The notes: generated by a model from the sequence alone, not told the origin. Shown: positions 4,539-45,362, numbered from the stretch's first letter. The stretch is 64,000 nt of DNA from Macrostomum lignano (GCA_002269645.1 NIVC01001546.1:62001-126000), one strand, 5' to 3'. Made by a program: numbers and translations.

Positions 4539-5804
4539 TGTAACAGGCCTCTAGGTCGCTAGCAAATACTTCACGCTAATCCCAATGTCGGTTCCACCAA
4601 ATGTAAAAGGTCGATATTTATTAAAGTTGATGGTCTGAATAATAAATTGATGCAAACCACGCTACTGCTGACGAGTAATATATCACGACTGTGAAACTCA
4701 GCGCGGGACCGAGACAGGCCTCTTGTCGCGAGTGACCTATAACTCCTTATGGGCCCTATGACTCTCGGAACTAGAGTTTTCCTCTGGGCCTCCTGGTCCT
4801 TAGAGTCTTTGTCTAATCGCAGACAGTGACTCATGCGCACTTTATCACACTATGACTCAGCGTCTGGCCTAGCTCAGACGAGCCTTTTGTCCGCGAACTC
4901 TTAGTGAGCGGCGTGACTAGATTCTCTATTTTGGGATGGAAAAGGTCCCAGATAACTTAAACTTTTGGTAGCTTTCCGAGAAATGGCCTAGGCAGAAACT
5001 GCTTATTTTGCACCAGTTGAAGGGCGGTACCCTGAGATGGTCTGATAGAGCAATGCCAATAATTTCTTGATAGGTTACATTCCCCAATGTATCGATAATC
5101 AATTTCCAAACTAAATACGTCACAAAAGGTAGTTTGCTGCCACCAATCGAAGCTATGATTAAATTGACTGAGCCAAAATCGCTATCAAGGAAGATTTGAA
5201 TAACTTGAATTAGAACTTAGATTGGACAAGAGCTTAATAAACTGTCAACTGTAATTGTAATTATTAAACGATAAAGTAACAAATAATTAACTAGCGCATC
5301 AGCAGAAAATAATAATTAACCTTTACAATAATTAGTCAACAAAACACAAAGATAAGCTCGGCCTCCTGTGTCCTTACCAACACAGTCTGTTAGAGCTAAG
5401 ATTTAGGTTTGACTAACTAACTCAGTACTTTGGAGCTGCGCTCAATCAAGACTCATTTAGTTACTAATAGCTAGTCATGAACTAATAAATTGTCAGGCAC
5501 ACCGGGCCGATCTTATACAAGACAATACTAGACTGGGAGCACACAGTCCGGGCTAATAGGCAACTCTGGGCCTACGAGAACAAGAACGGAAATTCGAATT
5601 GGTGCGCGCAGTATTTATATACCCGCAGAATCAGTGCAGTAAAACAACTGGTAGACCTCTTGTCACATATACGGTAACCTATTCGTTCTCGCATGTGCAT
5701 GAGTTTCCAGTGAATTAATTTCGCACGTTAGTATGATCTCAGAAGTCATTAGTAATTAATAATAATTAGCATAATAAACGATGAATTCTAGGAGCCCTAC
5801 CACA
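4539..5804 (-). mobile_element. Solo LTR-like repeat, copy 1
   Basis: Minus strand begins TGTGGTAGG and ends CCTGTTACA; TATA-like GGTATATAAATA near 5612-5623; about 4700-5612 is a diverged reverse-complement homologue of 10036-10950; no TSD found. Confidence 0.5.
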
Positions 5805-9936: not shown

Positions 9937-10035
9937 AGTAGTAGTATGATATAAGGGGCTGAGTCATCAGGCGAGCTGGCGCGCAATGCGCCCGAGCAAT
10001 AAGTGTGGCGCAGCCCCTTATATCATACTACTACT
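9937..10035. repeat. Perfect 25-bp inverted repeat with 49-bp spacer
   Basis: AGTAGTAGTATGATATAAGGGGCTG (9937-9961) / CAGCCCCTTATATCATACTACTACT (10011-10035). Confidence 0.95.
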
Positions 10036-11098
10036 CGCGCGCACCAATTTGAATCTCCGCGCTCTTGCTTTGGCTCACGTTTTGCATTGCATCTTAGCCC
10101 GGACTGTGTGCTCCAATATAGTTCTTATTATCTTGCGTAGGCCCGGCCCGTTGTGCCTGATAATTAACTTAGTTCATGACTAGTGATTAGTACTTGATAT
10201 GAGTCTTAGTTGAGCAAAGCTCCTAAGCATTGAGATTAGTTAGATAGGCCTAAATCTTAGCTCTAACAAACTGTGTTTAGTAAGGACACAGGAGGCCAAG
10301 CTTATATTTGTGTTTTGTTAATCAGATTATCGTTAAGTTTTTTCTTATTTCTGCTTGTGCGCTAGTTTATTGATTTATTCAATTATCGTTCAATAATTAT
10401 AATTACATTGGTCAATTTGTTGTTATTTCGAAATTCAATTTAAGTTATTCGGTTCAATTTAGGCAAATCTTTCTTTGAGGAACGGCTTGGCTTAGTCATT
10501 TAATCATAGCTTCGATTGGTGGCAGTGAAATACCTTTCGTGACGTATATAGCTTTCGGATTGAATTATCGATTTATCGGGAAACTTAATTTATCAAGAAA
10601 TCAGTTGCATTACTCTATCAGACCATCTCAGGGTACCGCTCTTCGGCTGGTACATTATAAACAATATAGCCTTAGGCCTACCGAAATTCTAAGTTATCTG
10701 GGACCTTTGTCACTACCGGAAACAGAGAACCAAGTCACTCCGATCACTAAGAGTTCGCGGACAAGAAGCCCGTCTGAGTTGGGCCAGACGCTGAGTCACC
10801 GCCGTTCTAAAGTACGAGTGATTCATAGTCTGCAACTAGACAAAGAGCCTAGGAGACAGAGAGCCCAGAGGAAATCTATAGTTCCGCGAGACATAGGGCC
10901 CGTAGGAAGTTATAGGTCACTCGCGACAAGGGGCCTGTCTCGCTTCAGCGTTAGATTTAATTTTCGACACAGACTACTTGTTGAAGTAGCAAATTTAGCA
11001 TTAAGTCGTTGTCAAGATCGTCAAGTTTAAATAATTTACAACCTAAAACATATAGATGTAGTGATATATCGATTGTCGAAAATTTAGGTTCTGTGACA
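10036..11098 (+). mobile_element. LTR-like repeat, copy 2 (5' part replaced)
   Basis: Colinear diverged homologue of the reverse complement of 4700-5612; ends CTGTGACA versus CTGTTACA in copy 1. Confidence 0.55.
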
Positions 11099-11229
11099 GC
11101 ACAACTGATCCCTTACATTGCAGAGAGATCATTTAGGGATTGCAAGCTTATTTTTGCGGCCTTGGAGGTTAAATTTCTGCCAAGTGTCAGGCGGAGCAAG
11201 CCGAAGAAAAAAATCAAGATTGGATCGGT

Positions 11230-11900
11230 GAAGGTCCGAGCAGCAGATATAGCGGGCCAGCTGTTTCTAGAATACGAGCGTATTTTGCGGCATAGGAGAA
11301 ACAAAAAATGCACTGATAATTATGTACATCAGAAGAAATCAGATAAAAAAACGAACATACCAGCTGGTAAAATACAGTTTCGTCGCGAATGGCCTCTTCG
11401 CCGAATTCAATAATGGCTTCAGCCGATGACATAGGTAAGCGAGCTCCCAAAGTCGAATGGCCCGTTTCAGCAGCGGATCCAGTCATATTCGGCATTACTT
11501 CCAAAATACGAGACAAAAAATCGTGTATGTTGAATTGCTTCCGCTCAATGTCGTTGATTCGAAACAGCAGTTTGCGAAACCACGCTGAAACAATATTCTG
11601 TTGGAGACTTTACCAGTTCGCTAAGCTTCAGATTCATAAACCAAAATACGAGTACAAGAACTCACATTGTATATTGGTACACTGGCAGGAATTATTGTAG
11701 GTTAAATTTGGCGTTTGACGGACCTCGGACGGCTCCAAGTCAGCGGAAGTGCACCCCAAGCTCATTCTTGAATGTTGTGTTTCTCGAGGCACGACTTCGT
11801 GACGAATAGCTTTGCCAGCTGCACTACTACTGCCCTTAACGACAGCAGTCATTTGAGCATTGGATTCGCTGCATTGGAGCAGTTCTGTAGCATTAGAGCT
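11230..11900 (-). pseudogene. Fragment of an EnSpm/CACTA-associated accessory gene (DUF4806-like)
   Basis: LFRINDIERKQF...LPMSSAEAIIEFGEEAIRDETVFYQL followed by a GT donor; resembles the LP-x-x-x-E-x-L-x-x-FE pattern of these partner proteins. Confidence 0.35.
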
Positions 11901-12196
11901 GCGCGAGCTCATCTGGTTGACCTAAGAGTTAAAAGTAAAACTTATGCTAAATACAGCTAAGGAAAAATTAGCACTTTGTAAATACTAGCTCACGGGATTA
12001 AACTGGCAAGTTTTAGTAGAGACGAGGGTGGATTTGGCATTGTGTGAATAGAAAAATTATTATTAAGTAACAAACGTATATGATAAGGCACTTCACTATA
12101 TATTCAGGGACAAAGCTGATAGCTAAAGACATTCATTAAGTCAAATAGGACAGTAGAAGGCATGAGGGGGCTTTTGGGACAATTTTTAACATCCTC

Positions 12197-12514
12197 CATA
12201 ATCCCATTAAATCCATCCATATTATCTCTGACAGAATCAGAAAAAGGGGGTCGCACTTGCTCCAAAAACTGCGAACATAATTCCATTAAATCCATCCATA
12301 TTATCCCCCGAATTAGAGGGTCGCACTTGCTCCGAAAACTTCGAACATAATCCCATTAAAGCCATCCATATTATCCCTGAATCAGAGCATAACAGGTGTC
12401 CTACTCGCTTACAGAACGTCACCCGTAATCCACCTAAATCCATCCATATTATCCCTGACAGAATCAGAGCATAAAACAGGTGTCCTACATAATCCACTGA
12501 CATCCACCCATAGC
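12197..12514. repeat. Degenerate tandem array, 70-80-bp units
   Basis: Core TAATCCCATTAAATCCATCCATATTATC recurs four times plus one degenerate copy. Confidence 0.85.
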
Positions 12515-12631
12515 ATCTTCGAAACAATCAGAAAATAATCTGCATTCTTCTCCCCACATTCAATTCGCAACGCGAAACCAGATCCCTAAGACTTTAACTC
12601 CTCAGCGCAGGGTCCTTACCCTTTGAAAAAA

Positions 12632-12868
12632 ATGTTTCCAGTTGTCTCTCCAGGTTCTTATTACAAAGCGCACGAGCCTAATTACAAGAGTAAGTACCGA
12701 TGCAAACTAGAATGCAGTGAGTACATGAGAAAATATTGGCCCGGCATTGATATCAATGTCCCTAATATTAATCAAGCACTTAAATCTCACTGGTTTAAAA
12801 AACACGGAGTAGTCATTAACGATTTTGACAGCTACTATAAATTTGCAGAAATCATTAGGCAATCGTAA
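12632..12868 (+). CDS. Small ORF of unknown function, probably part of the Polinton-like virus block
   Basis: 78-aa open frame from the ATG (MFPVVSPGSYYKAHEPNY...); its stop lies 6 bp from the penton stop in a tail-to-tail, virus-like arrangement. Confidence 0.45.
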   Translation: MFPVVSPGSYYKAHEPNYKSKYRCKLECSEYMRKYWPGIDINVPNINQALKSHWFKKHGVVINDFDSYYKFAEIIRQS

Positions 12869-12874
12869 TTTTTC

Positions 12875-13737
12875 TCACATTCTCTCAATGATCAATGTCA
12901 GTACAAACTCTTCACCGTTGAAATCAACACCCACCCCATTTCAGTCTCAAACTGTAGCACAATCTCGCGAATCTCCTTATTACTCAATAGAACTCTTTTC
13001 ACTGGATTTGGTTTCTCTACCAGCATCTGTCCTCCAGCTTTGTACATAGATTTTGTACAAAATATTCGTTCGCTTTCCCTTAAATACCCAATCAAGACTG
13101 AGATTACTTCTGATTAGAATATTCAAACCCTTTACAATGTCTGCAATATTGGGTGCTAAGAACAAACCGCTTACACTTTCCCGGGCCATGCTAACAGCCC
13201 CCGACGTTTGAGTGGCGGTCCGCGCCGCGGATTCTGCCTTAGAAAATTTTTCTTCTCGAATCCCAATTCCCTATACCAAGTGTTATCTTTAAACTCAACA
13301 TCCGCATCTTTGTGAACTTGCATGACTACTCTCATTACAGTGAGATCATAGGCTAGTTTGACAGGGAACAGTTTTTTCTTTGGCTTACTCAGATCAGGTG
13401 TCTCAAAATGGCATCTTTTAGTAAAAACGTTTTCTAGAAAGTAATTGTAGGTATCTACACTTTGCATGCTCACAGGGAATACCACAGGTTCTGCTGCTGC
13501 ACCTTTCCGTTTGTAATAAAACTTATTATTTGCTGCCGTCACATTAGGAACATTTGACCAACCAGTGAAGTCGTTAAGATAGACATGGTAATTAGCACCT
13601 GGATCCAAGAGAATTGCCTGCTCTAATTTTTGAATAAATATCCCGTTTGAGTCATTAATTCGCCCAGTTATTGTAATAGAAATGCTCTCCTTGGAGTGCG
13701 AAATAATATTATTTAGTCTTTCAGCAATCGCTTCCAT
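12875..13737 (-). pseudogene. Polinton/adintovirus minor capsid protein (penton, single jelly roll), three frameshifts
   Basis: AILLDPGANYHVYLNDFTGWSNVPNVTAANNKFYY; then after shifts APNIADIVKGLNILIRSNL, GGQMLVEKPNPVKRVLLSNKEIREIVLQFETE, GVGVDFNGEEFVLTLIIERM*; lies 19 bp downstream of the MCP stop. Confidence 0.85.
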
Positions 13738-13756
13738 TTTTTTCGCATAAAAATAT

Positions 13757-15043
13757 TTAAACTTTTCTGGATAAATTGTTGATCATGTTAAGCTTCACCT
13801 TCCTCTCAAATGCATAGATAATGTACAGGTCCACGGGTGTTGCGACAGTCCTCTCAATGTTAGTCACGATATTCACAGGGTTGTTATCAGTAGGCATTTG
13901 TCTGGCAGACACATCAGCGCCAAACATCGGATATAGAGTTCCATATTGAAGAGCAGTGATAGCAATTCCGTTGTTCTTTTTCACAGCCAAGTCGACCAAC
14001 TCGCTGTAAAATTTGCTAATCTTGTTCTGACTGAAATCTCCATTTTGTGGCAGTGCAGGGTAAAGATTATCACTGATTTCATGCTGAATGGACCGCACGT
14101 CTCCATGCACGTAGCGTATAATGCTATTTGGGTTTCTCATGTTAATAATAATATACCTTGGATTGCTGCATGATCCCTCTTTGATGCAGTTGTTTGTTCT
14201 AGTTTCGTTTCGCTCATCTCGACACATGTAGGCCGTGTATGCAACATCAATGTCCTTCTCTATTGCCTTGAGATAATCCGCTTTTAGTGCGGTCTTTGGC
14301 TCAATGACTTTCAAATACAGCTCGATTCCGGTTAGCTTCACCTCCATCCTTGTGTCGTCCGCCCCAGTCCACAACACTCTACTGCGATCATCTCTAGTCA
14401 TCTTAAAAGTGTAGCTAAAGTTACTAGTCAGTCGATTAAATGTATTACAGAACCCACTCATAAATCTCAGTGGTACAAATACATCAACAGACCGATGCAG
14501 CGGGTTTTTAGCAGCATCATCAGCACCTTGCAATGCATAGTTGTATCTCTTCTTCCTCTTTTTATAGCCACTGTCATTGATATTTCCTTCTTTTTCATCT
14601 GCAATAAAACCCGCACCACTTCCCAACTGAATAAAATCAGGATTCTCGATCAAACAATGAGCGTCATAGACAATTCCAAAGTTGGCGATTCGCTCCAACT
14701 CTGTGCTCCCATTCGATACACTAAACTCCTTGAACATGTACGTCAAAAAGTTACTGATCAGAGCCACATCCGCATCATGCTTGTCAACGTTAGCACGAGC
14801 CGCATCCGCGCAACCCTTTGTCTTGAATTGAAATGTCATATAGAAGCCGCTCTTAAGACTGTGCACACTAACCAAAGACGAACATCCATTGTATGTAAAT
14901 GTCAGTGTTTGGCCAGGACCAAGATCGGTTTCATTCTGATTTTCCTGACTGGGAACTCTTACCTGAGTCGCTTTGATTTTGCTATCATCACTCAAAATAG
15001 GCTTGTTAAGTTTGTAGAAAACTGGTGTCAGTGGGTCGTTCAT
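13757..15043 (-). CDS. Polinton/adintovirus major capsid protein (double jelly roll, PY/hexon-like), 428 aa, uninterrupted
   Basis: Motifs FVPLRFMSGFCNTFNRLTSNFSYTFKMTR, PRYIII, YPMFGADVSARQ match the Polinton MCP pattern (PL..FGFC..Y.K....L.L.R; PRYII; PLF.FDVS.Q); A-rich ATG context; penton adjacent. Confidence 0.9.
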   Translation of the reverse strand: MNDPLTPVFYKLNKPILSDDSKIKATQVRVPSQENQNETDLGPGQTLTFTYNGCSSLVSVHSLKSGFYMTFQFKTKGCADAARANVDKHDADVALISNFLTYMFKEFSVSNGSTELERIANFGIVYDAHCLIENPDFIQLGSGAGFIADEKEGNINDSGYKKRKKRYNYALQGADDAAKNPLHRSVDVFVPLRFMSGFCNTFNRLTSNFSYTFKMTRDDRSRVLWTGADDTRMEVKLTGIELYLKVIEPKTALKADYLKAIEKDIDVAYTAYMCRDERNETRTNNCIKEGSCSNPRYIIINMRNPNSIIRYVHGDVRSIQHEISDNLYPALPQNGDFSQNKISKFYSELVDLAVKKNNGIAITALQYGTLYPMFGADVSARQMPTDNNPVNIVTNIERTVATPVDLYIIYAFERKVKLNMINNLSRKV

Positions 15044-15073
15044 TTTTTAACTAAAAATAAAATAAAATCAGAA

Positions 15074-15180
15074 ATGAAGCGAAAAAGTACACAGCAGATA
15101 TCTGAATTGGAGAAGCTAGCACAAGGAGAGAAACGAGTTACCGGGCTAATAAATAAGGAGCAACAATCCTACAATAAGTT
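15074..15180 (+). pseudogene. 5' stub of an ORF divergent from the MCP, cut by a LINE insertion
   Basis: ATG 30 bp from the MCP ATG across an AT-only spacer; MKRKSTQQISELEKLAQGEKRVTGLINKEQQSYNK then an abrupt switch to GC-rich LINE sequence. Confidence 0.4.
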
Positions 15181-15199
15181 TGTCCAAGCAGCCACCGAA

Positions 15200-15740
15200 T
15201 TAATGGCCCGGATTGGTGGCCCGGAGGAACCGGATGAGCCGTGGGATGTTCTCGGGCCGGCAAACGTCGTCCTGGGACGGGTTGGACCCGAGGTGGTTGA
15301 GCCGGTCTTGGTTGAAGGCCGGGCAGTAGCAGACGAAGTGCTTAGCGTCTTCGTTCTCGAGGTTGCAGAAAGGGCAGAGTTCGCTCCGGCGGGCACTTCG
15401 GAGGAAACAGTGCCTGGCAAAGCAACCGTGACCTGTGAAGGTCATAGTGAGAGCGCGGATATCTTTTCGATTTTGGTTCAAAAGGATTCTCCGCAGCTTG
15501 AGGGACGGATTGGGCACTGCCGCACGAGATTGGCGGCAGTTGGAGATACCATCCCATCTGCGCAAGTGCAGGATGTCCGCCCAGTCGTTAATCTGACGAT
15601 TAATGACTGTGGCGGGGATGGGGGCCAGGGGCACGGGGCCAAGGGGCGAGCCGGAACAGCCCGCCTTAGCGAGGGAGTCGGCGAGCTCGTTACCTTTGAA
15701 GCCGGCGTGTCCTTGGATCCACGTAAGCAAACTCAAAAGT
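15200..15740 (-). pseudogene. 3' end of a non-LTR retrotransposon ORF2 (RNase H C-terminus plus CCHC finger; I/R1/LOA-like group)
   Basis: WIQGHAGFKGNELADSLAK (RNase H), TGHGCFARH, CPFCNLENEDAKHFVCYCPAF. Confidence 0.9.
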
Positions 15741-15747
15741 CAAAACT

Positions 15748-16228
15748 CAAAAGTTACGTGAGTTTCATGCGGTGAGCGCGTGAAACTTCCTTATTTGGGC
15801 ATTGAAATCATGCGAACGACGCGTGATTCAAGGCCAACTTCCAAATAAGGCAACCCGGTCACGCGGCAGTGGCGTGACTTAAGGTCAGTGGCCACGCACA
15901 GTGTGCGTGCACAGTCATGTGCTTTTCTGTGCTAAAAAAAAGAACTTGGGCGGATGAGTCATCCTGTTTACTCCCTCTAGGCAGCCATTACACTCCGCGC
16001 AGGTGATGAGTCATCCTACTACGCCTCGCAGCGCGAGTGGGAATACATTGAGTGTGGCTGCCCACGCCTGCTCAGGCGATGAGTCATCGGGCAGTAAACA
16101 CTTAGGCCCAGCACAGGGTATCTCTCTCACTAGATCAGGTGGACTGAGCTACTGTGCAGCGGACCACAGCACTCTTAGGGAAAGCTAGTAAATGCTGCTG
16201 AAAAGCTAGTTAGCAGCTAGTCACTGCA
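15748..16228 (-). repeat. Truncated copy of the LTR-like repeat at 27289-27766
   Basis: About 480 bp colinear and highly similar to 27289-27766; minus-strand start TGCAGTGAC; three GATGAGTCATC motifs. Confidence 0.9.
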
Positions 16229-16239
16229 CTTGGAAACCA

Positions 16240-17000
16240 TGTTCGATGATGCTCTTCTTGATCACGAGAACGAAATGACTGATCAGTTCGCCTTAATTCA
16301 TTTCTTTCTGGAAATACAATGCTTTTAGATGCTTCACTGTGTTGCCCTCGAGTGGTGCAACGATCACATGAAAAATACCCGGTTACGCCAGTAGTATTTT
16401 TCACAAACTTCTTAGCTAGCATGTCACAAATAATCCATTTTTAGCTATGCTTAGCTGATAACCATCAATGCTAAGTGGCTCATCGCTGATAACAAGTAGT
16501 TCCTGGCAGAGTTGTTTCAAAAATTCATTTGAAGAGTCAGGTTTGTTGCTTCCATAATAAATACCAATAATGAAGACAGAGTTTGGCACTTCATTAATAG
16601 CACCTAAAATAGTCCATAGTCCAGAAACAGAACTTTGGAAAAGGGGTACTCCATCAATGTTTAATGACAGTAAATTCTTGAGCAGTTTGAAAGTTCGATT
16701 GTCCTTTAATAGTTGAAAAAATAGACTTGATTCCTTTGATAACTCCAAAATGGCAATATTTGCCTGGAAGAATGTCAACAAAATTGAAAAGTTCCTTATT
16801 GTCTAAAGAAGGCTTGAGTCATGTTTTTCCAGTAGCAGGCAAACTTGGAATACGTTTCTTCAGAATCTAACAATGAAGTCAAATCATCTAGCTTAATATT
16901 GCATGTTGTAGCCCAATCCTGAATTTCTTTTTGAATAGCCAAGTCTTCACTTAATTGCTCATAGGAAAAGTTTGAAATGCTTGAAAGAGATCCATTACAA
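16240..17000 (-). pseudogene. EnSpm/CACTA-like (Transposase_21-type) transposase fragment
   Basis: LNIDGVPLFQSSVSGLWTILGAI, IYYGSNKP, (C)DMLAKKFVKNTTGVTGYFSCDRC, RTDQSFRSRDQEEHH; frameshifted. Confidence 0.85.
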
Positions 17001-17634
17001 CTACTAGTAATACTAGAATTATTGGAACTATTGCTAGTCTCTGTGGCACAGTCAACAGTTTCAGGCTCCTCTTGATTTTGGCTTGAAACAAAGTGCTGTA
17101 TAGAGTTTAAAGCTTGAATTTAATGGTTGTGGCTTATGTTGAAAGGACAGTTTGTCAAATAATTATTAGAAGCCTCATCAGAAAAAAACACTTTGTGAGG
17201 AATCTTTATTTTGAATTATAAAGAACCGGTTCACCTGGCGAGCTTCCCAACGCCAGGAAGATATTTTTTACTTTAAATTTTCTTCAAGTCAAATATCTAG
17301 CTGAAAAGCATTATTAAATTATATTATCAATTGATCTAATATTCATATTTTATTATTAATTATTAAAAATAAATTTGATTATTTCAATTTTTAAAGATAA
17401 GTCAAAATGAGAAATTAATCAAGACAAAAATTTAATTTAAGTCTAATTATAAGTATAAATGAGTTTTATATTTACAGAATTTATTAGCAATAATAATTAT
17501 GGCTAGAGTTCCGGCACCGGAACCCATTTTCTAATATACTCAGCAACAGTCAAAAGTTCCACCCCACTAAGCGAGATGATTTTTTTCACTTATTGCAAGT
17601 GACGCAACCTACGGCACGCACAAAGCTTATTGCC

Positions 17635-17705
17635 GCTTGGGGGTGGCTTGGGTCTGCTTAATGGTCCAGGCCTGGACATTTAGCAGACCCAAGCCCACAC
17701 CAAGC
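17635..17705. repeat. Near-perfect fold-back palindrome
   Basis: GCTTGGGTCTGCT-TAATG-GTCCAGG|CCTGGAC-ATTTA-GCAGACCCAAGC, with further imperfect outer arms. Confidence 0.85.
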
Positions 17706-17734
17706 TCCGCCACACCAAGCCGATGCTGTTAGTC

Positions 17735-17995
17735 AACTGAAGGAACAGCTACAGCTGCGCACTCTGCGCTGGCCTTCCCGGTCCCCAGACATGAATCCCA
17801 TCGAGCATGTCTGGGACTTCCTAAAACGTAGCATTCGAAAAGAGAATCCACCATAGAATGTTGCGGAGAGCTCTGCGTCATGCCATTGAAAACGCTTCGG
17901 AGCGGCTTCCCCAGGACTTTCTGCGCCGCCTCATCATTGGGATGCCCCGCAGAGTCGTCGCACTTCTGCTTGCGAGGGGATCCCACACGCATACC
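17735..17995 (+). pseudogene. Tc1-family transposase C-terminal fragment
   Basis: LRWPSRSPDMNPIEHVWDFLKRSIR ... LPQDFLRRLIIGMPRRVVAL. Confidence 0.88.
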
Positions 17996-19730
17996 AAACG
18001 CATTTTTGTGGTGCGCATGTAAATGACGCACATCTTAAAAACCTTTTCAAAAAGTATACACGAGCATACTTTGATTGCAAGAGAAGAGAAGATATATGCG
18101 ATCTTGTACTTTCAAGACACTGTGAAAAAAATTTCTGGATCTACAGCTAGTATACTTTCACAATGGATACGCGCTTTGCTTAATCAGCTGAAAACCTTGT
18201 GGAGGGTGACTCTAGAAACAGTGGCCACTTGTGAAGATGATTTTTTAAAATTAAAAAAGTACAATAAACATTGACGCAACTATAGCAATAAAATCACTAC
18301 ACGTATGAGAATGGCTGTAAACGCAACATCACAAAATGCGTGAAACGCAAGAAAAAATCCCTGATTGTGCTCTCATTCTCTCTGGTTTCCCCATTGTTTC
18401 TATTGCTTTTTACTTTCACAGATTTTCACTGACCGCGGTCACCATGAGAATAGCAGTTATGTATATGTAAAGAAGCAAAAATGAAGAACAAAAAACAGCA
18501 AAAACTAAACAAAAAAGCAATTAGTGCGTGGCTAAATTCGTGATAAATTGTAAATTGAGAATTGTAAATTCGTGATAACGATATGAGGCAAAAAGTTGTT
18601 AGTAAAAAATCGATTGTCTCACAATTCTATCATATTGATAAGTTCTCCATCGATTTGGCTAAAGCACGTCGTGAAACTGTCGTTTGTTCGCGTTGGGGAA
18701 CTGCTGCCCATTTGTGTATGCAGCAGTCGAGGATGTTTGGGCTTTGCCGACTCGCAGTAGTTGGCCTGGGCCATCAGGGATGCTGCAGCAGAAGCTCACG
18801 CTGCAGCCTAAAAGCAAAAATATGATTCTTTATTCAAAAAGTTGAGTTGTCATTTTTAAGCTTTTGTAAATAAAATTTAAATTTCCTATTTAAATTCCAA
18901 GAAGTACCTACCAAGGGCCAAGGCTACCATTTTTCCAAAAAGTTCAGTTCGTATTTGTATCGTAGTCATAGTCGTAAACTCATAGTATCGTATTCGTAAT
19001 CATATTCATATAGGTAGGTAGGTGAGCAGGTAGGCAGTTATCAGCTAATTACTTGTATTTCCATTGTCTGTTTGCCTGTTCTGTTGAGTGTTGTGTTGTC
19101 ACTTCACTTGTGTTCTGTTCTGTTGTCTTGTCTTGTTGTCTTACTGAATACTGACTGTGTACATGGCTCTTTACATTGAAGCTATGTAAAGGAACTAAAA
19201 ATTCAAATAAAAGAATCAATTGATTTGGTTCTTAATTCCTTACTGCTTCCAATGCCAAGTGCCTTACACTTAATGCTTCAGCTTTTCTTCTTTTTGCTTA
19301 CTGCCACTGCCAGCCACACTGCCGCAGTGCCTGCTTGCCTACCTCACTGCCTGTTAGTGTCACTGTCACTGGCACACACACAGTACTTGTGCCACAGTGA
19401 CATTGAATTTGAACTATTGAGTATATTGATATTTGAGTATTAAGACTTGTAATGTAACTCTTATCTATTCTTAAGTCTTAGCTAATGTATTAAATAATAA
19501 TAATATTTATTATATATTTAATATATTATTTGATATTTAATATATTTATATATTTATTATATATTTAATAGTAATCGGCATATGCTAAAAGTATTAAGAT
19601 TTATTATGATGATATTTTTCCAATTATTGAGCTGTCCTAAAGATCTTGTCCCGAATTCCCGAGGCCCGACCCGGGCCTTTTGCCGTCCCGGTCGCCCCCT
19701 AGTCGGAAGCGCCTCCCGCATAACGTTTTA

Positions 19731-19791
19731 ACGTATCGGGACGTCACAGAAACGTCTCATATAGGCGTTTTGTGTCACGTTGCCGATACGT
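19731..19791. repeat. Imperfect hairpin
   Basis: ACGTATCGGGACGTCACAGAAACGTCT-CATAT-AGGCGTTTTGTGTCACGTTGCCGATACGT. Confidence 0.7.
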
Positions 19792-20375
19792 AATTTTTTA
19801 CGGCTCGTAGGTGACCATTACGTCCCCGGCAACGTTTTTAAACTACGTTTCTAATTGGTCTAAATTATACGTACCGATAACGTAAGGATTAGACGCTCTG
19901 ACGCATGTATTTGATGTATTAATGTATGCACTTGGGTGCAATCTACCATTCCTGCTTTTTTTCCGACTGCGTAACTGATTAAGAAATCATTCTATATACT
20001 CAATCAACGTAACGTAACCTCGGCTTCTATAGAATATATGGGCCCACTAAAAATATAAAACTCCAATTATAAAATATAATCCACCAGTGCAAATTAATTC
20101 AGAAATAAAAATAACCAATTTGTTTACGTTTAGATTTAATAAGCAGAAAAAAGTTCAACAAAAAGCAGTCAGAAATTTTTTCGGGGGGGGGGGCATCTCA
20201 GCACCCACCTAGAGGAGGGGTATAGGAGAGCAGGTTTTTTAATTCTCCGGAATCTTAGGTGGAGGGGCAATTTTTTCAGGAATTTTTTTCTTTGGGGGGG
20301 GGGGGTAAATTTCATACCCAGGCCCCCTGCCCCCCTGACTGCGCCACTGACAAAAAGACAGTTTACACTTGTATA

Positions 20376-20554
20376 TTAGGACGCATTCACAAGAAATAAT
20401 TAAAAGCATTGGGCCGCATTCACAAAGAAATAAAAGCATTAGGGCGCATTCACAAAGAAATAATTGGAAGCATTAGGGCGCATTCACAAAGAAATATTAA
20501 AAGCATTAGGGCGCATTCACAAAGAAATAATTAGAAGCATTAGGGCGCATTCAC
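20376..20554. repeat. Minisatellite, about 33-bp unit, six copies
   Basis: CATTAGGGCGCATTCACAAAGAAATAATT(A/G)(A/G)AAG repeated head to tail without unique spacers. Confidence 0.92.
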
Positions 20555-21049
20555 CATCAAGTAAAATCAACAAGGAAAGTACGAGTAATTGAGAATATTT
20601 CATTGACGAGATCTTTGTATCCAGAATAGTAATACGTCCCTGACTGATTTTGAATTATGGATTATGCAAATTAAATAATTGTATGTTGTACTTAATTGCA
20701 AGCTTTTTATCTGGATAAAAAATTGGCTTTCAGTTACTCATCGGAATAAATTTTCTGACACCAACAAGTGACAGTAACGAACGCAACGCAAAGGGCATTT
20801 AAATTAATCACTTTCACCGTCGGCATCTAAATCTAAATCTAAATCTAAATTTCATCTAAATCTAAGTTACTCGGCCCAGCTTGATCCTCATCGTGAGTGT
20901 CGCTGTTACTAAGGCTCGCATTGTTGTTAGTACTAGGATCGGCCAAGACTGCCGCAGAATTGGGGTCAGTGATTTGGTTTTGAACCGCTCTATTACTTGT
21001 TGATTGCGCTTTCTTTGTCATCCTTTTAAGAATTTCGCCAATAAAAGAG

Positions 21050-21625
21050 AACGGCCTGTTTCGCTTAGATAAGTTTTTAGGCAACTGACGCTTCAGTCCC
21101 TTGTTGCTGTGAACGACGTCTACAAAAATTCAGCGTATGATATTTAAGAGATATGAAAGTGATAATTTGTGGATTTTTGGTGTGAGTTTATTCCGATGTG
21201 GGTTGTACTCACTAGAGATGCACTGGGCTAAAGATTCAGGAAGCGGCTTCTTTGATCCACGCCCTTCGATGTTAAAATGTTGAAGCGTTTTTGCGTTTGC
21301 TGTCTACAGCAGCATTGCTGTAACAGCCTCGGAAAAGACGATGCAGTTTGCAGATCGCTTGAAGCAGTAGCTCAGCTAAGATATAATTGATGGAGTTTGT
21401 AATGCAAAAGTACAGTAACAAGGTTAAATTACGTAATCTAATCTTACATAGGCCGACTTTAAATCGGTATCGCCTTCCAGCTTTACACCGAATTCTAGCA
21501 GCCCGTCAACGGTCTTTAAAGGGAGAGTGACGAGCAAATCGTCTCTTTCTGTCAAAATTTCACGATGGTTAGCGAGGGCGGCACATGTTTCTTCTAGAGC
21601 AAGGATATGCTCAAGGATAAGCTTC
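21050..21625 (-). pseudogene. Spliced remnant of an EnSpm-associated accessory gene (DUF4806-like)
   Basis: LILEHILALEETCAAL...LPLKTVDGLLEFGVKLEGDTDLKSAY|gtaag; next exon contains LQHFNIEGRGSKKPLP. Confidence 0.45.
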
Positions 21626-21659
21626 GTTCAGTCTAAAATAGCAGCAATTTTTGACGCTA

Positions 21660-21915
21660 GTGTACACTTGGGAGTCTAAAAGTTCATTGATTGAGAGGTT
21701 CAATCGTACTCTCACAAATAAATTCTGGTTTGAATTCGATCTACAGGGTAATCAGAAATGGCTCCATATGATACCAACTATTGTTAATAAGTACCACACA
21801 ATCGATTGTAAGATTCTCATAACTCCTTCAGAGGCTTCATAAACTAAATTTACAAAGTGCTGACCGCAGAGCAACTGGAGGGAACACAAAGCCCAAATTT
21901 TTGCTGCCCGGCAAT
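21660..21915 (+). pseudogene. Polinton/Maverick retroviral-type integrase, C-terminal core fragment
   Basis: SLIERFNRTLTNKFWFEFDLQGNQKWLHMIPTIVNKYH...ITPSEAS followed by KPKF; matches the Maverick INT pattern ERFNRTLK..MW..F......W...L...V..YN...H..I..TP..A...KPKF. Confidence 0.8.
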
Positions 21916-22380
21916 CATCTGAACATTTAGCTGATGCCTAGGTACAAAAGCAAAGGAGCTTTTGGAGTGACCCACTCTGTGTGACCCATTCAGTATACTA
22001 AATGAACAATAAACTTAACCTCACATTCAAACAAGCGTTGTACAATGTATTCCACTTGCAGTAATACTTGCTCCAATTTAAGTAGCACACTCGAAAGCTA
22101 TCCAGATGGTCACGTAGGCCAAAGGCTGTAATTCGGCCATAAGAGAGTTGGACACCTTTAGGAGGCTGCTTACTGTCTCCTTGAGCCAGCCGAATACTTT
22201 TAAAGTCAGCAGCAATCGGTTGGTGTGTTTGGGGTACAATAATAATGTACATTAGGTAAATTTACTTAAGTAAATATGTTTTACATTATAATTTACTGTC
22301 AAATTTTCAAATAATTATCAACAAAGCCCATAAAACCAGTGCAAAAAACTCTTTTAACTATAGCTGCTTAAGTTCTTTGC

Positions 22381-22715
22381 TCTTCTTAGCTAACTGTCTA
22401 TGTCGAAAAGGCATAGCCGTGACAGCATGTGACTAAAAATGGTTACTTGTACATTCAATTCATTTATAATAAAAACTTGAATAATTTGATGATTTGCCTA
22501 CCACGTTTTTCAAAATTTTCTAAACATTCTGTGAAAAGAATTCACAGATTATTTGCTCTTCTTAGGTAACTGTCTGTCGAAAAGGCATAGCCGTGACAGC
22601 ATGTGACTAAAATCGGTTACTTGTACATTCAATTCATTTATAATAAAAACTTGAATAATTGGATGATTTGCCTACCACGGTTTTCAAAATTTTCTAAACA
22701 TTCAGTGAAAAAAAA
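22381..22715. repeat. Tandem duplication, about 176-bp period
   Basis: TCTTCTTAG-TAACTGTC...GAAAAGGCATAGCCGTGACAGCATG...TTTTCTAAACATTC starts at 22381 and 22557. Confidence 0.9.
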
Positions 22716-23569
22716 TTTCCTACCTTCTCTGCGCTCGGTCAATCAGATCCTGCATGTCGTTTTCATCAGCAGGTCGTACCTTGCACTTGTCGGTATTTCG
22801 ACGTGCCTTATGCTTCCTGAAGCTATTGGCAGTACCTGGAATGATAAGGTGGCAAAATGGGCAAACATAGCTACTGGCAACGTTGATGACGCTGCTGTCT
22901 GGCAGGTCTTGCGTGCTGCTGGCGTCTGGCGCGCTGTTAGCTGGCATGGTTGGCAGGCCTTGTGTGCTGCTGGCGTCTGGCGCCCTGTTGGCTGGCAGGT
23001 CTGGTGCGCCACTTTTGAAAGGGTTGATCTTTATAGGAATTTGGCTAATGGCCTGCTTCTCTAGTCGGGAATAATGCGAAAATAACGCACTATTAATGGC
23101 CATTATAATGCCATTTAGTGCGTTATAATGCATTGTAATAAATTAAATGCAAAAATAATGCGGATATAGTGGATGAAATAATGCGACTTGAATGGCAGAT
23201 AACGCATTTTTGTACAATGCATTAAAATGCATGCTCGAGTACATGTATTCTGCCGCCACTTCATTGGTATTACTCCTTTGGCTTTCTTATAATCTTTCTT
23301 ATAAGTCTTCTGATTTTTTATTTCTTTCCTGTTCTTTAGTTGCTGTACTGTTAAAATATAACATGAATATAAAATATTATTATAAGCACGATTTCTTAAT
23401 TGTTCTTTACTAATTTACTGTGACTTCTAATCTAAAAATGCGACCCTAGAATCTAATCTAAATGTCAAAAAATTGGAAAGACTTGAAAGCGATATTAGCA
23501 GTTGAAAAATTTTTTTCTTAGAAACGAAAATTAAAAAAGGTTATCAGTAAGAATTTATTGAAACGATTG

Positions 23570-23700
23570 AGTTACCGAACAAAAACTTAACTTCAATAAA
23601 GGTGAAAATTACACTAATTATAGCATTGAAACAAACAATTAAGTTACCGAACAAAAACGTAACTTCAATAAAGGTGAAAATTACACTAATTATAGCATTA
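23570..23700. repeat. Tandem duplication, 72-bp period
   Basis: AGTTACCGAACAAAAAC...ACACTAATTATAGCATT at 23570 and 23642. Confidence 0.9.
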
Positions 23701-24097
23701 TTTATAATTGCCAGTCTATCATGGAAATCTGATTTATTTCTGGAGTTTAATTTTTGTTTAAAAGTATACATAACAGTTCATAAATATTAGTTCATAAACG
23801 TTAGCCAAACAGTCTGAATGCCCTCTTGCGAGTACTAACCTTTTTAATAGGTGGCAACTATAAACTCTGCAACAGATTAATCATGCTCACACTCCTCCAA
23901 CAATGCAAAGTATGTAAAGTATATAGCTCATAATTGTCATAAGAGGTCATAAGAGGTCCACAAGTCCATAACAACAAAATCCGCTTCATAACTACAAGAC
24001 ACACTAAATACACATTGTCTAATGGAAATGCCAAAATCATATTTACTTTTAGTAAAATTATTAGTGGACTAATACCAGTATGATGATCTTCATCAGT

Positions 24098-24960
24098 TTA
24101 GGCTCGAAAGGATTGGTCTGTTCGAAATGCTGCATTGGTCTCATCTAGAATAACATATTTTTCAAAAAAGCCATGAACTATGCACCTTTCACAAGAAGCA
24201 TAGCCACTATGTCCTCCTATACACTTAATAAAGGCACGAGCTGGTGCATCACAAACGAACATAATATTTACTTTTGACTCAATAATTAGCAAATCATTAA
24301 AAAGTTGCTTTAGGAAATTTTCAATTGGTGGTTTGCTAACTCCATGAAAGATAGCAATAATGAATGGCTCAGAGCCATCTAATGCTCCAAGAATAGGCCA
24401 AAATGCATCTTGAGTACTTTTTGAAATTAGGAGACCATCTATGTTAATTTGAAGCTGTAGCTTAGACGTTGACAACTCAAGGGTTTTACTAATACAATCA
24501 AGTCCAAAATATAGAAAACTACCGGATCCCATTGGTTCAACCTTGATATTACGAGGAATTTGCAAGAGTGTTATAGCACACCGTGGAAGAAAAGTAAAGT
24601 AGCAAACAAGGATCTTTAAAAGAGCAGTTATTGCTGTTAGTGTAATGTTGTAAGCCTTTGCCCAATCTCGTAGCTGTTCAATTAAAGAAGCTCCACTTGC
24701 ACTAACTGAATCAACAGATGATTCATCAGATGATGATTCAAAGTCATCTAGATCAGTAGCAAACATTGAATCAACATCCATTGCTCTACATCATTCATTG
24801 TGAATGGCAGAAGTAGTTATAGAATGAACATGTTCACTAATGACATCCTAATTAGGTTCATCTTCGTCATCAACATCAGATGTTGAAGCTAACTCTTGAA
24901 GCAATTCATCAAACTTTATTTTTGCATGCCGTTGAGACGTTCTTTTGGATATAGTATATC
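24098..24960 (-). pseudogene. EnSpm/CACTA-like transposase, N-terminal half
   Basis: LRDWAKAYNITLTAITALLKIL, LQINIDGLLISKSTQDAFWPILG, FVCDAPARAFIKCIGGHSGYASCERC, RTDQSFR. Confidence 0.9.
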
Positions 24961-25519
24961 TATATCTTGACTAATGCTTTTAAATTTAGTTATATAAGAT
25001 CTGATTTTTAGTATAGGGGATGGATGCCAAAAGCAGAAATATAATCTAAATGTTCTAGAGCCTAATATATACGAGCTTTTACTTAAAAAAGAACAAAAAT
25101 TGTAAAATAGGCCAAGTATCAAAATCAGAGAAATTAGCTCGAATTGGCTTTAGAAGCGTTTTGTGTTTATACTAAAGGAAACAAAATCAAGTGCGCTCAA
25201 CAATTAAGTTGTGAAGCGGAGTGCATGTCTAGACCATGTTCCTGCAGTTCCGTCAAAGCAAAATACATTTCTTAACTTTAATAAATCTGTGTTACTGGAT
25301 TGCACAAAAAGGGTTGTATTATCTTTTGTGCTGCACAATTTCTTTTATTTCTCATTTATAAATGTATGAATACTTATTTTAATGCTGTGATGTTAACACG
25401 AAGTATTTTAAATTATTATTTATTTGGGTGTAGCTTCGGTGTAGTAAAGTGCTTTCAGTTTCTCGTCGGACATTTTTATTATTTACTTTTTATAACAAAT
25501 TAAAAAAGGACACGTTCCA

Positions 25520-25815
25520 AACCACGTTTAGATGCTCATGGTATATTAGAAAAACTCCCTCGCCCAAGTAAAGGTTGGAAAATCCCTGGTTATAGATACT
25601 GCGGATATCTGAACCCGCTGGAAATACAGTTGGATGAAAATAATAAGCCGAGAGAAGGACACGGACCAGTAGATGTGTTGGACTCTATCTGCATGGAACA
25701 TGACATAGGTTATAAATTTTATCCTGATTTGGGAATTTCTGATGGTAGAGTAAGTTTGGGGAGTAGAGAGCAGGGTTTTGTATTGCATGCACCAAATAAA
25801 GAAGTGGGAAGATAA
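25520..25815 (+). pseudogene. Parvovirus-type phospholipase A2 domain (adintovirus/Polinton PLA2X-like)
   Basis: DAHGILEKLPRPSKGWKIPGYRYCGYLNPLEIQL...PVDVLDSICMEHDIGY: Ca-loop YxG and catalytic HD..Y. Confidence 0.85.
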
Positions 25816-25929
25816 TTAAAAGAAATTGGGGTTAAAATACTTTGGTTTTTCTATTCTTTATCTATTTTGGGAGTTGGGTTAGGAGTTTTGATTAATAAAG
25901 TAAGAGGGAGCAATGAACTCGTTAGAAAA

Positions 25930-26460
25930 TCGTTTTAGTCGATCCTGTGGTATCGTTGGGAAGAAGAGTACGAAGTTACAGTTACCTCTAATTGTTTCTT
26001 TGGGCAACTCAAACCAGCTTTGGGCAATGTAACTAAAATTGCAATTGTTGTGCCTACCCCGGGTAAAATAATTTTTATCCGTTTCTGAGGACCGGTCATG
26101 CAGTCATCGTTTCATTGTCTGGGATGTGTTTTGCATATTCGGTAGTCACAAATTCTGGGTTGCTGTTGAGGTCTTTTTGCTGTTTAAAGCACTGAATAAT
26201 ATCTCCCTTGTTGAATTTGTTTTGCAATCCTGCTATTAGCATTTTATATTCATCCTGGTGCTGAGTGAGTGAATAAATATGTAGTGTGTCATAATCGAGG
26301 AATCCAGTCTGCGGAGCATGTTAAAGACTGAAGGTTTCCCCGACCCAGATGAGCCAACAACCACAACAATGCATTTGAAGTACCCTGGAATTAACTTGTT
26401 GTGGGCAAATTTTATCTAACTGCGTGTCCAATGAGGAAAGAAGTCACTTAAAAAGTCCAT
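25930..26460 (-). pseudogene. Polinton/adintovirus FtsK-like packaging ATPase, disrupted
   Basis: Walker A VVGSSGSGK, GFLDYDTLHIYSLTQHQDEY, YFTRGRHNNCNFSYIAQSWFELPKETIRGNCNFVLF; stops and frameshifts; Walker B segment missing. Confidence 0.88.
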
Positions 26461-27000
26461 TTTTATTTCATTATTTATTTTAATGAGCGGGTGTGTATTG
26501 GGGATTTGTCTCTTATTTCTTATATTTTTTCTCTTTTATATTATCTCTTTTCCGTTGGCAAACGATCAGCCGTTCATTCCCTCCTTCAGAATCTGGAGGA
26601 GTCTTGAATTTGTCAGTTTGGCGTCTTCAGATGGCGGGTGGCCCAGAGACGTCACGTTAATTTTTTGTCTCGTGCTGCTCGGGTTTGATTAGTAGAAGAA
26701 CTTCGATTAGTGTCTTTGTGTTGGAAAAAATGGTAAACCTACCTGAGATTCTATTGACCTGCTACCGTACCTGAGATCCTGATGGGTAGCCAATATCCTT
26801 CTGAAATCCTTAATGGAAGTCACCCTCCGTGAGATGCTAATAGTGAAGTACTACTCCTTCTCGGGTTCTTGAAGATGTTCCTAGAAATAGAACCCGCTGC
26901 TCCTGAAGTAGCTAGATAGCACCGCTGTACTACCTATCGATTTGCCTGAAAATGAACCTAAAACGTTAGCCGTGACTTGGTAGGGTTGCTGCCACCTTGG

Positions 27001-27766
27001 TGTGCATACTCGACGCGTCGGCAGAGTTGTCTATCCGTCACCTGAAAGAAAAATAACAAAGTCGCTCGGAGCAAAGGCAAATCTAAAAATGTCTCGACAG
27101 TCGATCGTCTTAGTAGAATGCTGCTCGAACCTGAAAACCTGCAAAACCTGAAATGAGAGAGGAGAGCTCGGAGGCAGAGAGGCAGCTCCGGTCGAGCCCG
27201 GGCAGGACGACGCAATGGTCCGCGCTGCTCCACGAAGTCTGGAGAAAATGGCTCGCAGATGCTCTGTATTTATAGCCGAGCGGACCCCCAAAAGTCACGT
27301 GAGTTTCATGCGGTGAGCGCGTGAAACTTCCTTATTTGGTCACTAAAATCGTGCGAGCGACGCGTGATTCAAGGCCAACTTCCAAATAAGGCAACCCGGT
27401 CACGCGTCAGTGGCGTGACTTAAGGTCAGTGGCCACGCACAGTGTGCGTGCAGTCACGTGCTTTTCTGTGCTAAAAATAGAACTTGGGCGGATGAGTCAT
27501 CCTGTTTACTCCCTCTAGGCAGCCATTACACTCCGCGCAGGTGATGAGTCATCCTACTACGCCTCGCAGCGCGAGTGGGAAGACATTGAGTGTGGCTGCC
27601 CACGCCTGCTCAGGCGATTAGTCATCGGGCAGTAAACACTTAGGCCCAGCACAGGGTAACTCTCTCTTTAGATCAGGTGGACTGAGCCACTGTGCAGCGG
27701 ATCACAGCGCTCTTAGGAAAAGCTAGTGAAAGCTGCTGAATAGCTAGTTAGCAGCCAGTCACTACA
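27001..27766 (-). mobile_element. LTR-like element with bZIP-site enhancer and TATA box
   Basis: Minus strand starts TGTAGTGAC; CTATAAATAC at 27266-27275; candidate end GTATGCACA at 27001; 27289-27766 duplicated at 15748-16228; no TSD confirmed. Confidence 0.5.
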
Positions 27767-28269
27767 ATAGGTTGAGCTGCCTAACTATACTATACTATCA
27801 GCCAATTTGAAGCTAACTCATAAGAACATGCATTGAAAAGAGACAAGTTTGACAAGGCCTAAAATACAACAAAGAAAAAAAACAAAACCGATCTAACCGG
27901 CATAACAAAAAATCACTGCGCATTGATCGAAACCGAAATGTCACGTCACGGTAATGACCTCTGCTTAATGGCCTATTATTAACTGAAAGTCCTGTTTTGA
28001 CTATAGAACGCGCACAAATGGAAATTTGGCCATTAACTTTAATTTTCATTAAGTTCACTACTGCACAGACAATTGCTGTTAAAATTTCAAAATTTAGGGC
28101 AATGCAATAAAAATTCCAATAATTAATAAATTATAATAAAAAGTTCAGCAAAGTTACATTTCTGAATAGATAGTCTGTAATCAAATACGTGAAATCAACC
28201 GTAAAGCCTTTGAATTTCCTTAAGTCAAGTTTTTGCATGCACTGTCTCCTTAAAATTCCAAATAAATGA

Positions 28270-29727
28270 CAACCCGTTCTTTGGCACTTACAGCGCCATT
28301 AGAACAGTTTCGATCACTCGTCAGACGCTTGGCTCAATCTTTCACAGAGTCGACCGCTTTGCCAGTAAATAGTAGATCCTGAAGGATCGGTTGAACAGCA
28401 GAACTGGCTCCGACACCACGAGAAGAGCTCGAGTTTTGTAGAGTTAAGACCAGCAGGTAGACATCGCTCAGTTTTAACGATAGGACGCCGATGGAACTAT
28501 GCATCGAGCGTTGGACGTCTGAAAGTAATTCAACAAACGTACTTCTATTTATCGAACGTACTGGGGCTTCAGTAAAGAAATCACGATATATCTAGATTCT
28601 AGTGGCTTAAATCGATTGCGAGTATCGATAAAATATAATAAAGGCCATAATTAATAAACCCTTTAAGGAAATTCACTTCCTCTAGATGTAAGCATATACA
28701 TGACCGTCCAATTTTACTTTAGTACTCCAAATATGGACCGGGAAAAATTCACAATTTATATGTTTTCAAGTCATGTCTTTGACTTACTTTCAAGGCGTGT
28801 CAAAGTTGTGACGATTGTCTCTAGTGTGTCCTTAAAATCTGCGTTGGAATAGCGCACCGAAGAGGACCAGGCGGTTGCAGAATGCTGCGCCAACGGAGAA
28901 GCAGCCGCAGCGGCGGCGGCGGGAGCGAAACTGCGTGGCAGTAGGCTCTGGTTGCTGCATTGAAGCGAAGGATAAGCTGCGGCGGCAGCGGGAGCGAAAT
29001 TTTGCGTCGGCTGGAGACAATTAGGATTAGGAGACAACGCCAATACTGAACTACTTGTGCTGTTAATCGACAGAGGCTGCTGAAATTGCTGCTGCTGGAC
29101 TTAAAACCTAGGCGGTGCTTCAGATGCATTCTTTGCAACTTTGTTTTTTTCTGCTTCCTATTAGCCTTCTTCCGCACCCTTGGTTTTGAATCATAACTTT
29201 CTTGGTGAAAATTAATCACATCTCGACGCTTTCGAGGATTTTCACTATCCGTGGAATTGACAGCTCCCCCACTTTTCATATCGCTTGCTCGCAGTGGCAG
29301 CAGAGTGATAATTTTCTGCATGGAAAGAAATTAAAGCGGAAAAGTGAATCTTAAATAGTTGTGAAAAGAACGTTGACATTTTAAAAACCATTTTCTTTTG
29401 CCTGAACACACTGTAAGCAATTTTCTCGGAGTTTGCCTGAACTATGCCTGCATGATTGTGTGCAGAAATATTTTGCACCAAAATTGAGCAGTTTAGCTCG
29501 CCTTTGAATGTAATAATACAGCCTTCATATGCTGGCCAACTGTCATCGGGTGGTGACTTCTCCGGATTCGCAATGCAGATTTTGAACTTCTTTACTGGGG
29601 GAAACAGAGCAGTACTCTCGCTCTGCATCCATAAGCGGTGGATGACTTCAACTACATTGGTGTCAACAAAACGAACTGCAACGAATGGGCTCAGATTGCT
29701 GGTCATATCCATGTTTTTAATGCTCAA
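28270..29727 (-). pseudogene. Multi-exon EnSpm-associated accessory gene (DUF4806-like family)
   Basis: N-terminus FVAVRFVDTNVVEVIHRLWMQSESTALFPPVKK...PPDDSWPAYEGCI fits the F.VV.F.....V..V...W......WPP...W..Y pattern; then an AVNSTDSENPRKRR exon and low-complexity exons with GT donors. Confidence 0.55.
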
Positions 29728-30499
29728 CGAGGTCTGCTGAAAAGATAATGATTGCAGCTTTTGCTTTAAAAAGTTTTTTTATAATAATTTAATACTCAAT
29801 GCAATATAGTCTACCCAGCGCAGATCAGTGAGTGAGCCACTTAGTTTTCCAACTTGGAAGATATTGAGAGATATTGAATCGATTGTCTCATTATAGAGGG
29901 CTGTCTGAGTTGTAAACCTGCGTCAAAAAACACTTCCAACATCAGTAGACAAGACATAGGACACAGAAATAGCAAGACCCTCACGGGTTAAATATAACAA
30001 TCTGGGCTATCAATGGAAATAAAAGTGTTCCGTAAGAGAATATGAACTTTTCTGTACATACCAAAAACGTGAATTCCAGGTGGCAGAAATTCTATATCTG
30101 ATAATACAAATTGGTCTGAAAACTCAAATGGTGACTGAGCAGAAGCTAGATATTTAGGGAAAAAGCCGAGAGTCACATCTCTCAGATATTTTCTTGACTG
30201 TTTGCTCAAGTGCAAAGCGAGGACTTCGGCAAAATTGAGTGATAAAGCGAATAAAATTTTCACCCCAAAAGCAACTAGAACTGTCTAATGCGCCCCGACG
30301 CTGCATTTCAAAAGGGATATGAATGATTGAATGTATGGTATACACAATAAACTCTTGTCACCCCAAATAAGTTTACACTCTTCAACAATGTGAGCAGCCA
30401 AAGTTTCAGCATATGCACAACATGCTTGATGCTGAATAAGTGTGACAAAATAAAAACAAAAGTATGTAATTATAGGAAAAGGTTATACGAAGAATCTGG

Positions 30500-33699: not shown

Positions 33700-34460
33700 T
33701 TGGCCGGTTGAGGAACCACTCAACAGTGCACTCGTGCGTTTCTCCATGGTCACCGAGGTACCGATGTACTTCTCCCAGTCACACGGCAGATATCCGCCCG
33801 TTCCATACCAGCCTCGCGGAGGCGGGTTGCGCAACTCTTACGGAGACTCTGATTCGAGTAGCGTCCAGTGTCAGAGAAAGCAACCACGGCCACGGCGTCC
33901 TTGACGACGGTTGCCAATGAATGACGTCCAATCGGTGCCCTTGTCAACCAGGCAGATCCAGGCTGGCCATTCCAGTTTCGATTCCATCCCAGAAACAGCG
34001 CCTCGTTGCACTCATTAAGACGCACAGAGACGTACTGCTTGTAGACGCACACAATACATTTTTGGTGATTCTCAGTGTGGAAAGCACGAACGACTTTGGC
34101 GTCCCTTCGTAGTCCTTGTAAGCCGCCCTGATGAGTTTTGGTCACGGCATCGTCCACATACTTCAGACACTCTTCATCGTCAACCGTCTCAAGCTTGATT
34201 TGGCGATCGAACAGCAGATCTCGTAACTCCTGGCCACCACGCAATGCAAAGTGTTTGCCAGCGAGCCAAACAAGCGTGATCACCAGCATCTTGGGTTCCT
34301 TCACTCCAAGCACACCTTCGATCCAAAGCTTCTCTTCAATAGACTCGTGGATCACATCTGCCTTCCGCGGTTAAGCGAGAGGTTGCCAAACGGAGGCACG
34401 AGAGGCCCGTACTTATAGGATAGCGGATCGATTTCACCATACCGTGCAACTCCCCATTGC
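33700..34460 (-). pseudogene. Crypton-type tyrosine recombinase (DUF3504/ZMYM-like)
   Basis: RKADVIHESIEEKLWIEGVLG, FALRGGQELRDL, CIVCVYKQYVS, PIGRHSLATVVK, YSNQSLRKSCATRL, RVTGRS; both catalytic His positions altered. Confidence 0.9.
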
Positions 34461-41248: not shown

Positions 41249-41398
41249 TGTAACGGCTAGCCTAATGACTTTCACTCGTAGTCTATGACACCACTTTTGC
41301 TTTCACGCACCGTGCTACTCTATTTAACCCACGGGCATAATCAAATATAAAACCAACCGTGTTCCTTTAAGATTCGCCTTGATCAGCAAGCCGCCAAA
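41249..41398 (+). repeat. 5' LTR of gypsy element
   Basis: TGTAACGGCTAGCC...GCAAGCCGCCAAA; differs from the 3' LTR by about seven substitutions and two indels. Confidence 0.95.
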
Positions 41399-41399
41399 C

Positions 41400-41413: not shown

Positions 41414-41432
41414 GCTCAAATAGCTTTTGAGT

Positions 41433-45360: not shown

Positions 45361-45362
45361 TG

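Follow-up and report, generated by a model that had tools for sequence, protein, structure and literature searches.

Fragments of decayed Polinton-type genes among other broken transposons in a 64-kb stretch of the Macrostomum lignano genome

The DNA analyzed here is a stretch of 64,000 nucleotides from Macrostomum lignano (the window). Its Polinton genes lie in three pieces: a capsid block of 3.1 kb (~12130-15201), a scrap that holds parts of a phospholipase A2 (PLA2) gene and a packaging ATPase gene (25504-26460), and a 230-bp integrase crumb. All five genes that a first-pass annotation had proposed for this region, a major capsid protein (MCP) gene at 13757-15043 and genes for a penton, a PLA2, an integrase and a packaging ATPase, are present and are of the Polinton/adintovirus type according to Pfam, their relatives and matches in two Polinton contigs from IMG/VR, L001 and L002. 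The LINE, LTR-like and Tc1-type pieces between the Polinton fragments were likewise found, with Pfam and self-BLAST. The features are as follows.

~12130-15201, no strand assigned: capsid block, an uninterrupted relic from a Polinton-type family with many copies, bounded by a depth step and loose ends; edges approximate
12161-12488, no strand assigned: array of 70-79-bp imperfect repeats within the capsid block; in one contig, a repeat unit connects with position 12615
12632-12868, plus strand: ORF of 78 aa, function unassigned, tail-to-tail with the penton gene and without a Pfam match
12875-13737, minus strand: penton (minor capsid) pseudogene, split into four frame pieces by three frameshifts at about 13250-13170, 13045 and 12935
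13757-15043, minus strand: double-jelly-roll MCP gene, one open frame of 428 aa
15075-15201, plus strand: start of a divergently oriented gene, cut at 15201, where there are loose ends; a family contig covers 14928-15195
15213-15728, minus strand: piece of a LINE from its RNase H end, truncated on either side, with loose ends at 15213 (RNase_H E-value 9e-5, below the cut-off)
15748-16228, minus strand: truncated member of a family of LTR-like repeats; the loose ends at 15748 look like the continuation of the other copy
16229-17200, minus strand: DNA-transposon piece ("EnSpm-like"), low copy at its left edge
17662-17856, plus strand: Tc1/mariner-type DDE piece (PF13358, DDE_3; E-value 1.5e-9)
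~21612-21839, plus strand: Polinton-type rve integrase crumb, the C-terminal part of the catalytic core; ~75 codons match
24098-24790, minus strand: another "EnSpm-like" piece, distinct from the one at 16229-17200 and corresponding to the same protein region
25504-25880, plus strand: pseudogene of a parvovirus-type PLA2 that abuts the truncated ATPase
25885-26460, minus strand: A32/FtsK packaging ATPase pseudogene with one stop and three frame changes
26844-27766, minus strand: likely solo LTR with TG...CA ends and a 4-bp flanking duplication (weak evidence by itself, given a match of only 4 bp)

The assignment of the gene set to Polintons and adintoviruses is borne out by homologues of each piece, or of its profile, in L001 and L002. 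The MCP scores 23.6 bits against PF21738, under the cut-off of 27, and its structure model, which is of low confidence (pLDDT 52), matches the double-jelly-roll capsids of Sputnik, PBCV-1 and mavirus (best E-value 2.9e-11, TM ~0.38). Nine relatives were found among 4310 candidates, seven at 67-75% and two at 42-43% identity, and 542 matches were obtained when its profile was run against 1.84 billion representatives. For the penton, 10 relatives at 53-65% identity were present among 26 candidates, and its profile matches the gene at the penton position of L001 with an E-value of 3e-15 (among 25 proteins); the fold model is poor (pLDDT 37). The neighboring 78-aa ORF gave a weak lead to RNase T2 in the Atlas (0.83).

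The PLA2 matches PF08398 over 25504-25815 with an E-value of 5e-7, over the cut-off, and the Atlas returned no assignment for it. All seven ATPase relatives, found among 10 candidates, carry a precomputed Pox_A32 annotation. The ATPase, previously placed at 25930-26460, is present and slightly longer than annotated; it has lost an internal part around Walker B as well as its C-terminus. The integrase fragment annotated at 21660-21915 does have a Polinton-type match, which runs from ~21612 to 21839 and not out to 21915. This crumb has no Pfam match and is 30-38% identical to the integrases of L001 and L002, which were retrieved among three loci. The third locus, a 20-residue match in a phage-like contig (L003), was dropped as a chance match. 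PDB sequence searches gave no informative match for the integrase crumb or the ATPase profile. Viral and metagenome contigs contained no related loci for the MCP, penton or ATPase, the PLA2 scan returned two loci with matches of only 13 residues, and scans with the genes of L001 and L002 returned only these two contigs. An Rfam search of 10000-30000 found no group I intron.

We placed the MCP in a tree of 103 proteins, comprising the window MCP, 10 close relatives, 90 of the 146 listed proteins P0036-P0181 (those of 380-520 aa only) and the capsids of L001 and L002. The window MCP falls in a clade of 8 nested in a clade of 11, both with a support of 1.0, and the best identity outside the 11-member clade is 26% in this tree; identity to the L002 MCP is ~21%. 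These sequence comparisons support a divergent capsid lineage, and to this extent the annotation's "divergent lineage" holds for the capsid. We found no description of flatworm Polinton capsid families in the literature searched, most subscription journals and Repbase being outside its coverage.

To follow the capsid block in other data, contigs of four public runs from four studies, one of which is possibly the source of the window itself, were compared over 11800-16400. Contig depth rises at ~12130 in all four runs and drops after ~16265. In run X9, single contigs reach a depth of 1114 on the MCP and 840 on the penton against 17-20 in the flank, a difference of ~50-fold, where depth is not a copy number. 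The capsid block thus belongs to a family with many copies. Low-depth joints skip 375 and 1122 bases in contigs of other copies, which indicates that those copies are internally deleted as well. The array of 70-79-bp repeats is possibly subterminal in the element, and the divergent gene start at 15075-15201 would belong to the same element. Within the flank at 11800-12000, the runs contain both an identical sequence and another version that shows 17 differences and has 3 gaps, which suggests a duplicated or allelic flank.

Over 1052 bases of the MCP region, three contigs of run X5 show 20 differences (~2%), and penton contigs differ from the window at 14 of 234 and 6 of 164 bases (4-6%). Among the best 40 of 175 listed differences, eight of the nine best-supported MCP differences lie on codon positions 1-2 (p 0.29 against neutral expectation), and in the first frame of the penton 6 of 11 lie at position 3, with four near the first break left out. 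The capsid copy therefore appears to be drifting without selection. Because the MCP differs by only ~2% and mostly at codon positions 1-2, we regard the capsid block as a probable young dead copy, in which the frame would be open mainly since the copy is young.

The right end of the capsid block bears directly on whether the fragments belong together. At 15201 the contigs of two runs diverge, and the next 9 letters are absent from both strands of the 64-kb window. The adjoining LINE piece is itself cut at 15213, on its 3' side, beyond which the LINE copies in the contigs extend. The junction at 15201 is a break with loss and not a clean insertion; hence, no evidence assigns what lies past it to the insertion of the capsid block. 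Farther right, the LTR-like repeats at 15748-16228 and 27289-27766 are 94.6% identical by self-BLAST. We considered these two copies as the bounds of one retroelement and rejected this, since there is no PBS or PPT at the inner flank of either copy and the right copy is flanked by a 4-bp duplication of its own; the two look independent. The two DNA-transposon pieces, whose label "EnSpm" we take as an assumption and which have no informative Pfam match, are 42-44% identical over the same protein region and are thus different copies. A 72-nt hairpin (17635-17705) adjoins the Tc1 piece and has two weak Rfam miRNA-model matches below the gathering score.

The two gene blocks also differ in decay. 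Among the columns that are invariant in intact relatives, 19 of 112 are changed in the ATPase (17%), 24 of 245 in the MCP (9.8%) and 11 of 119 in the penton (9.2%), and the comparison of the ATPase with the capsid block (35/364) gives a Fisher p of 0.04. Leave-one-out baselines in the intact relatives are 0-7% for the ATPase (median 1%), 3-9% for the MCP and 2-7% for the penton. Point breaks are likewise denser in the ATPase, at 4 over 576 bp, compared to 3 over the 2150 bp of the capsid genes (p 0.04). These counts suggest about three times as much excess decay in the ATPase scrap as in the capsid block, where the edges of the frame pieces were set by eye from tblastn and could inflate the ATPase mismatches. 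Neither of the two blocks is depleted of GGNCC sites (7 with 4.4 expected, and 3 with 3.2 expected); such background counts do not separate the blocks.

Gene order gives a further indication. In L002 the PLA2 (residues 6-74) is fused ahead of the rve domain (residues 121-208) in one gene (L002:3567-4646), whereas L001 has a separate PLA2 gene; we found no description of such a fusion in the accessible parts of the literature on PLA2 in Polintons. In the window the integrase crumb lies 3.7 kb upstream (5') of the PLA2, and the sequence to the right of the PLA2 gave no integrase match. Insertions alone cannot give this order if the gene was fused. The window PLA2 aligns without gaps to the fused type and with one gap of 6 residues to the stand-alone type, and the two scores are practically equal (67 versus 68), which makes the order argument no more than a lean.

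We consider it somewhat more probable (about 55%) that the fragments stem from at least two separate insertions and not from one provirus. A member of the Polinton family would have integrated via its own rve integrase and then been silenced or cut. A deletion may have removed all of the capsid element beyond 15201, clipping a LINE too, and the capsid copy would since have drifted by ~2%. The PLA2/ATPase scrap would be what is left of an earlier insertion, its two convergent genes having been brought together by a deletion, and the integrase crumb would be a third scrap or one that has been displaced. By themselves, the pieces would not replicate or package DNA.

The annotation had read the fragments as pieces of one divergent provirus that later insertions broke up, which our data do not bear out. 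The somewhat less probable alternative is a single Polinton insertion that was broken by insertions together with several deletions and perhaps a rearrangement. As a single element predicts, the genes are complementary, do not overlap and have no duplicates within 14 kb. The MCP, penton and ATPase all have similar relatives in short ENA and Logan contigs (64-75%), which makes one lineage plausible. Two of the relatives, P0004 and P0025, come from contigs of equal length (2852). GGNCC sites are at background in both blocks, decay is uneven inside the capsid block itself (penton 4-6%, MCP ~2%), and the two p-values for the difference in decay are only 0.04. However, the junction at 15201 is not a clean insertion, the ATPase is more decayed than the capsid block, the integrase lies 5' of the PLA2 in the reverse of the L002 order, no TIR pair was found, and ~10 kb of unrelated broken transposons separates the blocks. 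Taken singly, these arguments are modest, and a single element that deletions have reshaped could also account for the pieces.

Other readings are less probable than this one. The pieces could be the fossil of the capsid/integrase half of a bipartite Polinton that carried no polymerase, from a deep-branching capsid lineage recently expanded to tens of copies; this is improbable, and if it were true, the missing PolB would be original design and not loss. It is still less likely that the juxtaposition or the frameshifts arose in the assembly of a repeat-rich region. Fragmented assemblies may mimic decay, according to the accessible part of PMC11131425, no listed contig covers the whole stretch, and at two of the three breaks in the penton the contigs of the four runs and the window are of unequal length. 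On the other hand, the flank at 11800-12000 is identical to contigs of two runs, the listed differences are mainly substitutions (175 places versus 18 indel rows) and mainly transitions, as in real mutation, and contigs lose rare variants, so that breaks confined to one copy should not be visible in them. We find it very unlikely that selection for a host function kept the capsid gene open while its neighbors decayed. The MCP has no breaks in 1287 bp, compared to three in 863 bp of the penton, and at the penton's own rate a break-free MCP would arise by chance with a probability of 0.011; at the pooled break rate this probability is 0.17. Moreover, eight of nine differences at codon positions 1-2 are hard to reconcile with purifying selection (p 4e-4 against an assumed 30%), and the MCP gene is one of many copies.

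Whichever history applies, several hallmarks of a complete element were not found in the window. Protein-primed PolB gave no match in 156 Pfam-scanned frames, a subset of the frames of the window, or in tblastn with a partial L002 PolB. The adenovirus-like maturation protease (adenain) gave none in Pfam scans or tblastn, which a short decayed copy could escape, and no TIR with a 6-bp target duplication was detected between 11801-13000 and 15201-40000 or in self-BLAST. Because PolB, protease and TIRs were not found, the locus is filed as Polinton-derived fragments and not as a complete element. The region is probably ordinary genomic debris, decayed Polinton-type fragments amid other broken transposons.

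This state is common. Of 3,511 vertebrate Maverick loci, 96% are degraded and 2,166 lack TIRs, as given in the accessible part of PMC8097293; the degraded vertebrate Mavericks/Polintons described there are likewise marked by stop codons, frameshifts and insertions, and TIRs can no longer be made out in them. The window differs from them in its nonvertebrate host, its divergent capsid clade and its capsid frame, which is still open. Adintoviruses are defined by PolB, integrase, FtsK, hexon, penton and adenain, and PLA2X is tied to Alpha adintovirus virion modules, of which degraded endogenized relics have been described (PMC8502044, in the part accessible). The PLA2-bearing (Mayetiola/Alpha-class) adintoviruses of that text share with the window a hexon-like double-jelly-roll MCP, a penton, an FtsK ATPase, an rve integrase (a short fragment in the window) and a parvovirus-type PLA2. 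In contrast to these viruses, neither PolB (OTU-pfam03175 in the Alpha type) nor adenain was found in the window, and the window MCP stays under the PF21738 cut-off. Parvovirus-type PLA2 genes occur in Polintons also according to the accessible parts of PMC4642659 and PMC5803895. The contigs L001 and L002 have homologous integrase, ATPase, PLA2, penton and MCP genes, and the L002 and window ATPases have a long segment after Walker A in common. However, both contigs have open frames with their genes on one strand, and both are distant from the window in sequence. Since decayed Polintons are the common state, the locus itself matters little; its value is as a pointer to a divergent capsid lineage with many near-identical genomic copies.

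The rest of the window is also rich in repeats and mobile elements. An inverted pair of ~920 bp (4702-5613 and 10032-10950, 77% identity) flanks a 292-aa ORF that has no Pfam match. A DUF3504 domain at 33753-34370 (E-value 2e-18) marks a piece that is presumably Crypton-like. PIF1 helicase pieces at 37017-40242 and 45517-46155 likely belong to a broken Helitron, interrupted by a frameshifted element at 41249-45515 that we take to be of the Gypsy type, with LTRs of ~150 bp, RT, RNase H and integrase. Finally, a Tc1-like element at 50282-54439 has 296-nt TIRs (99%) and contains a nested mariner-type transposase at 51929-53004.
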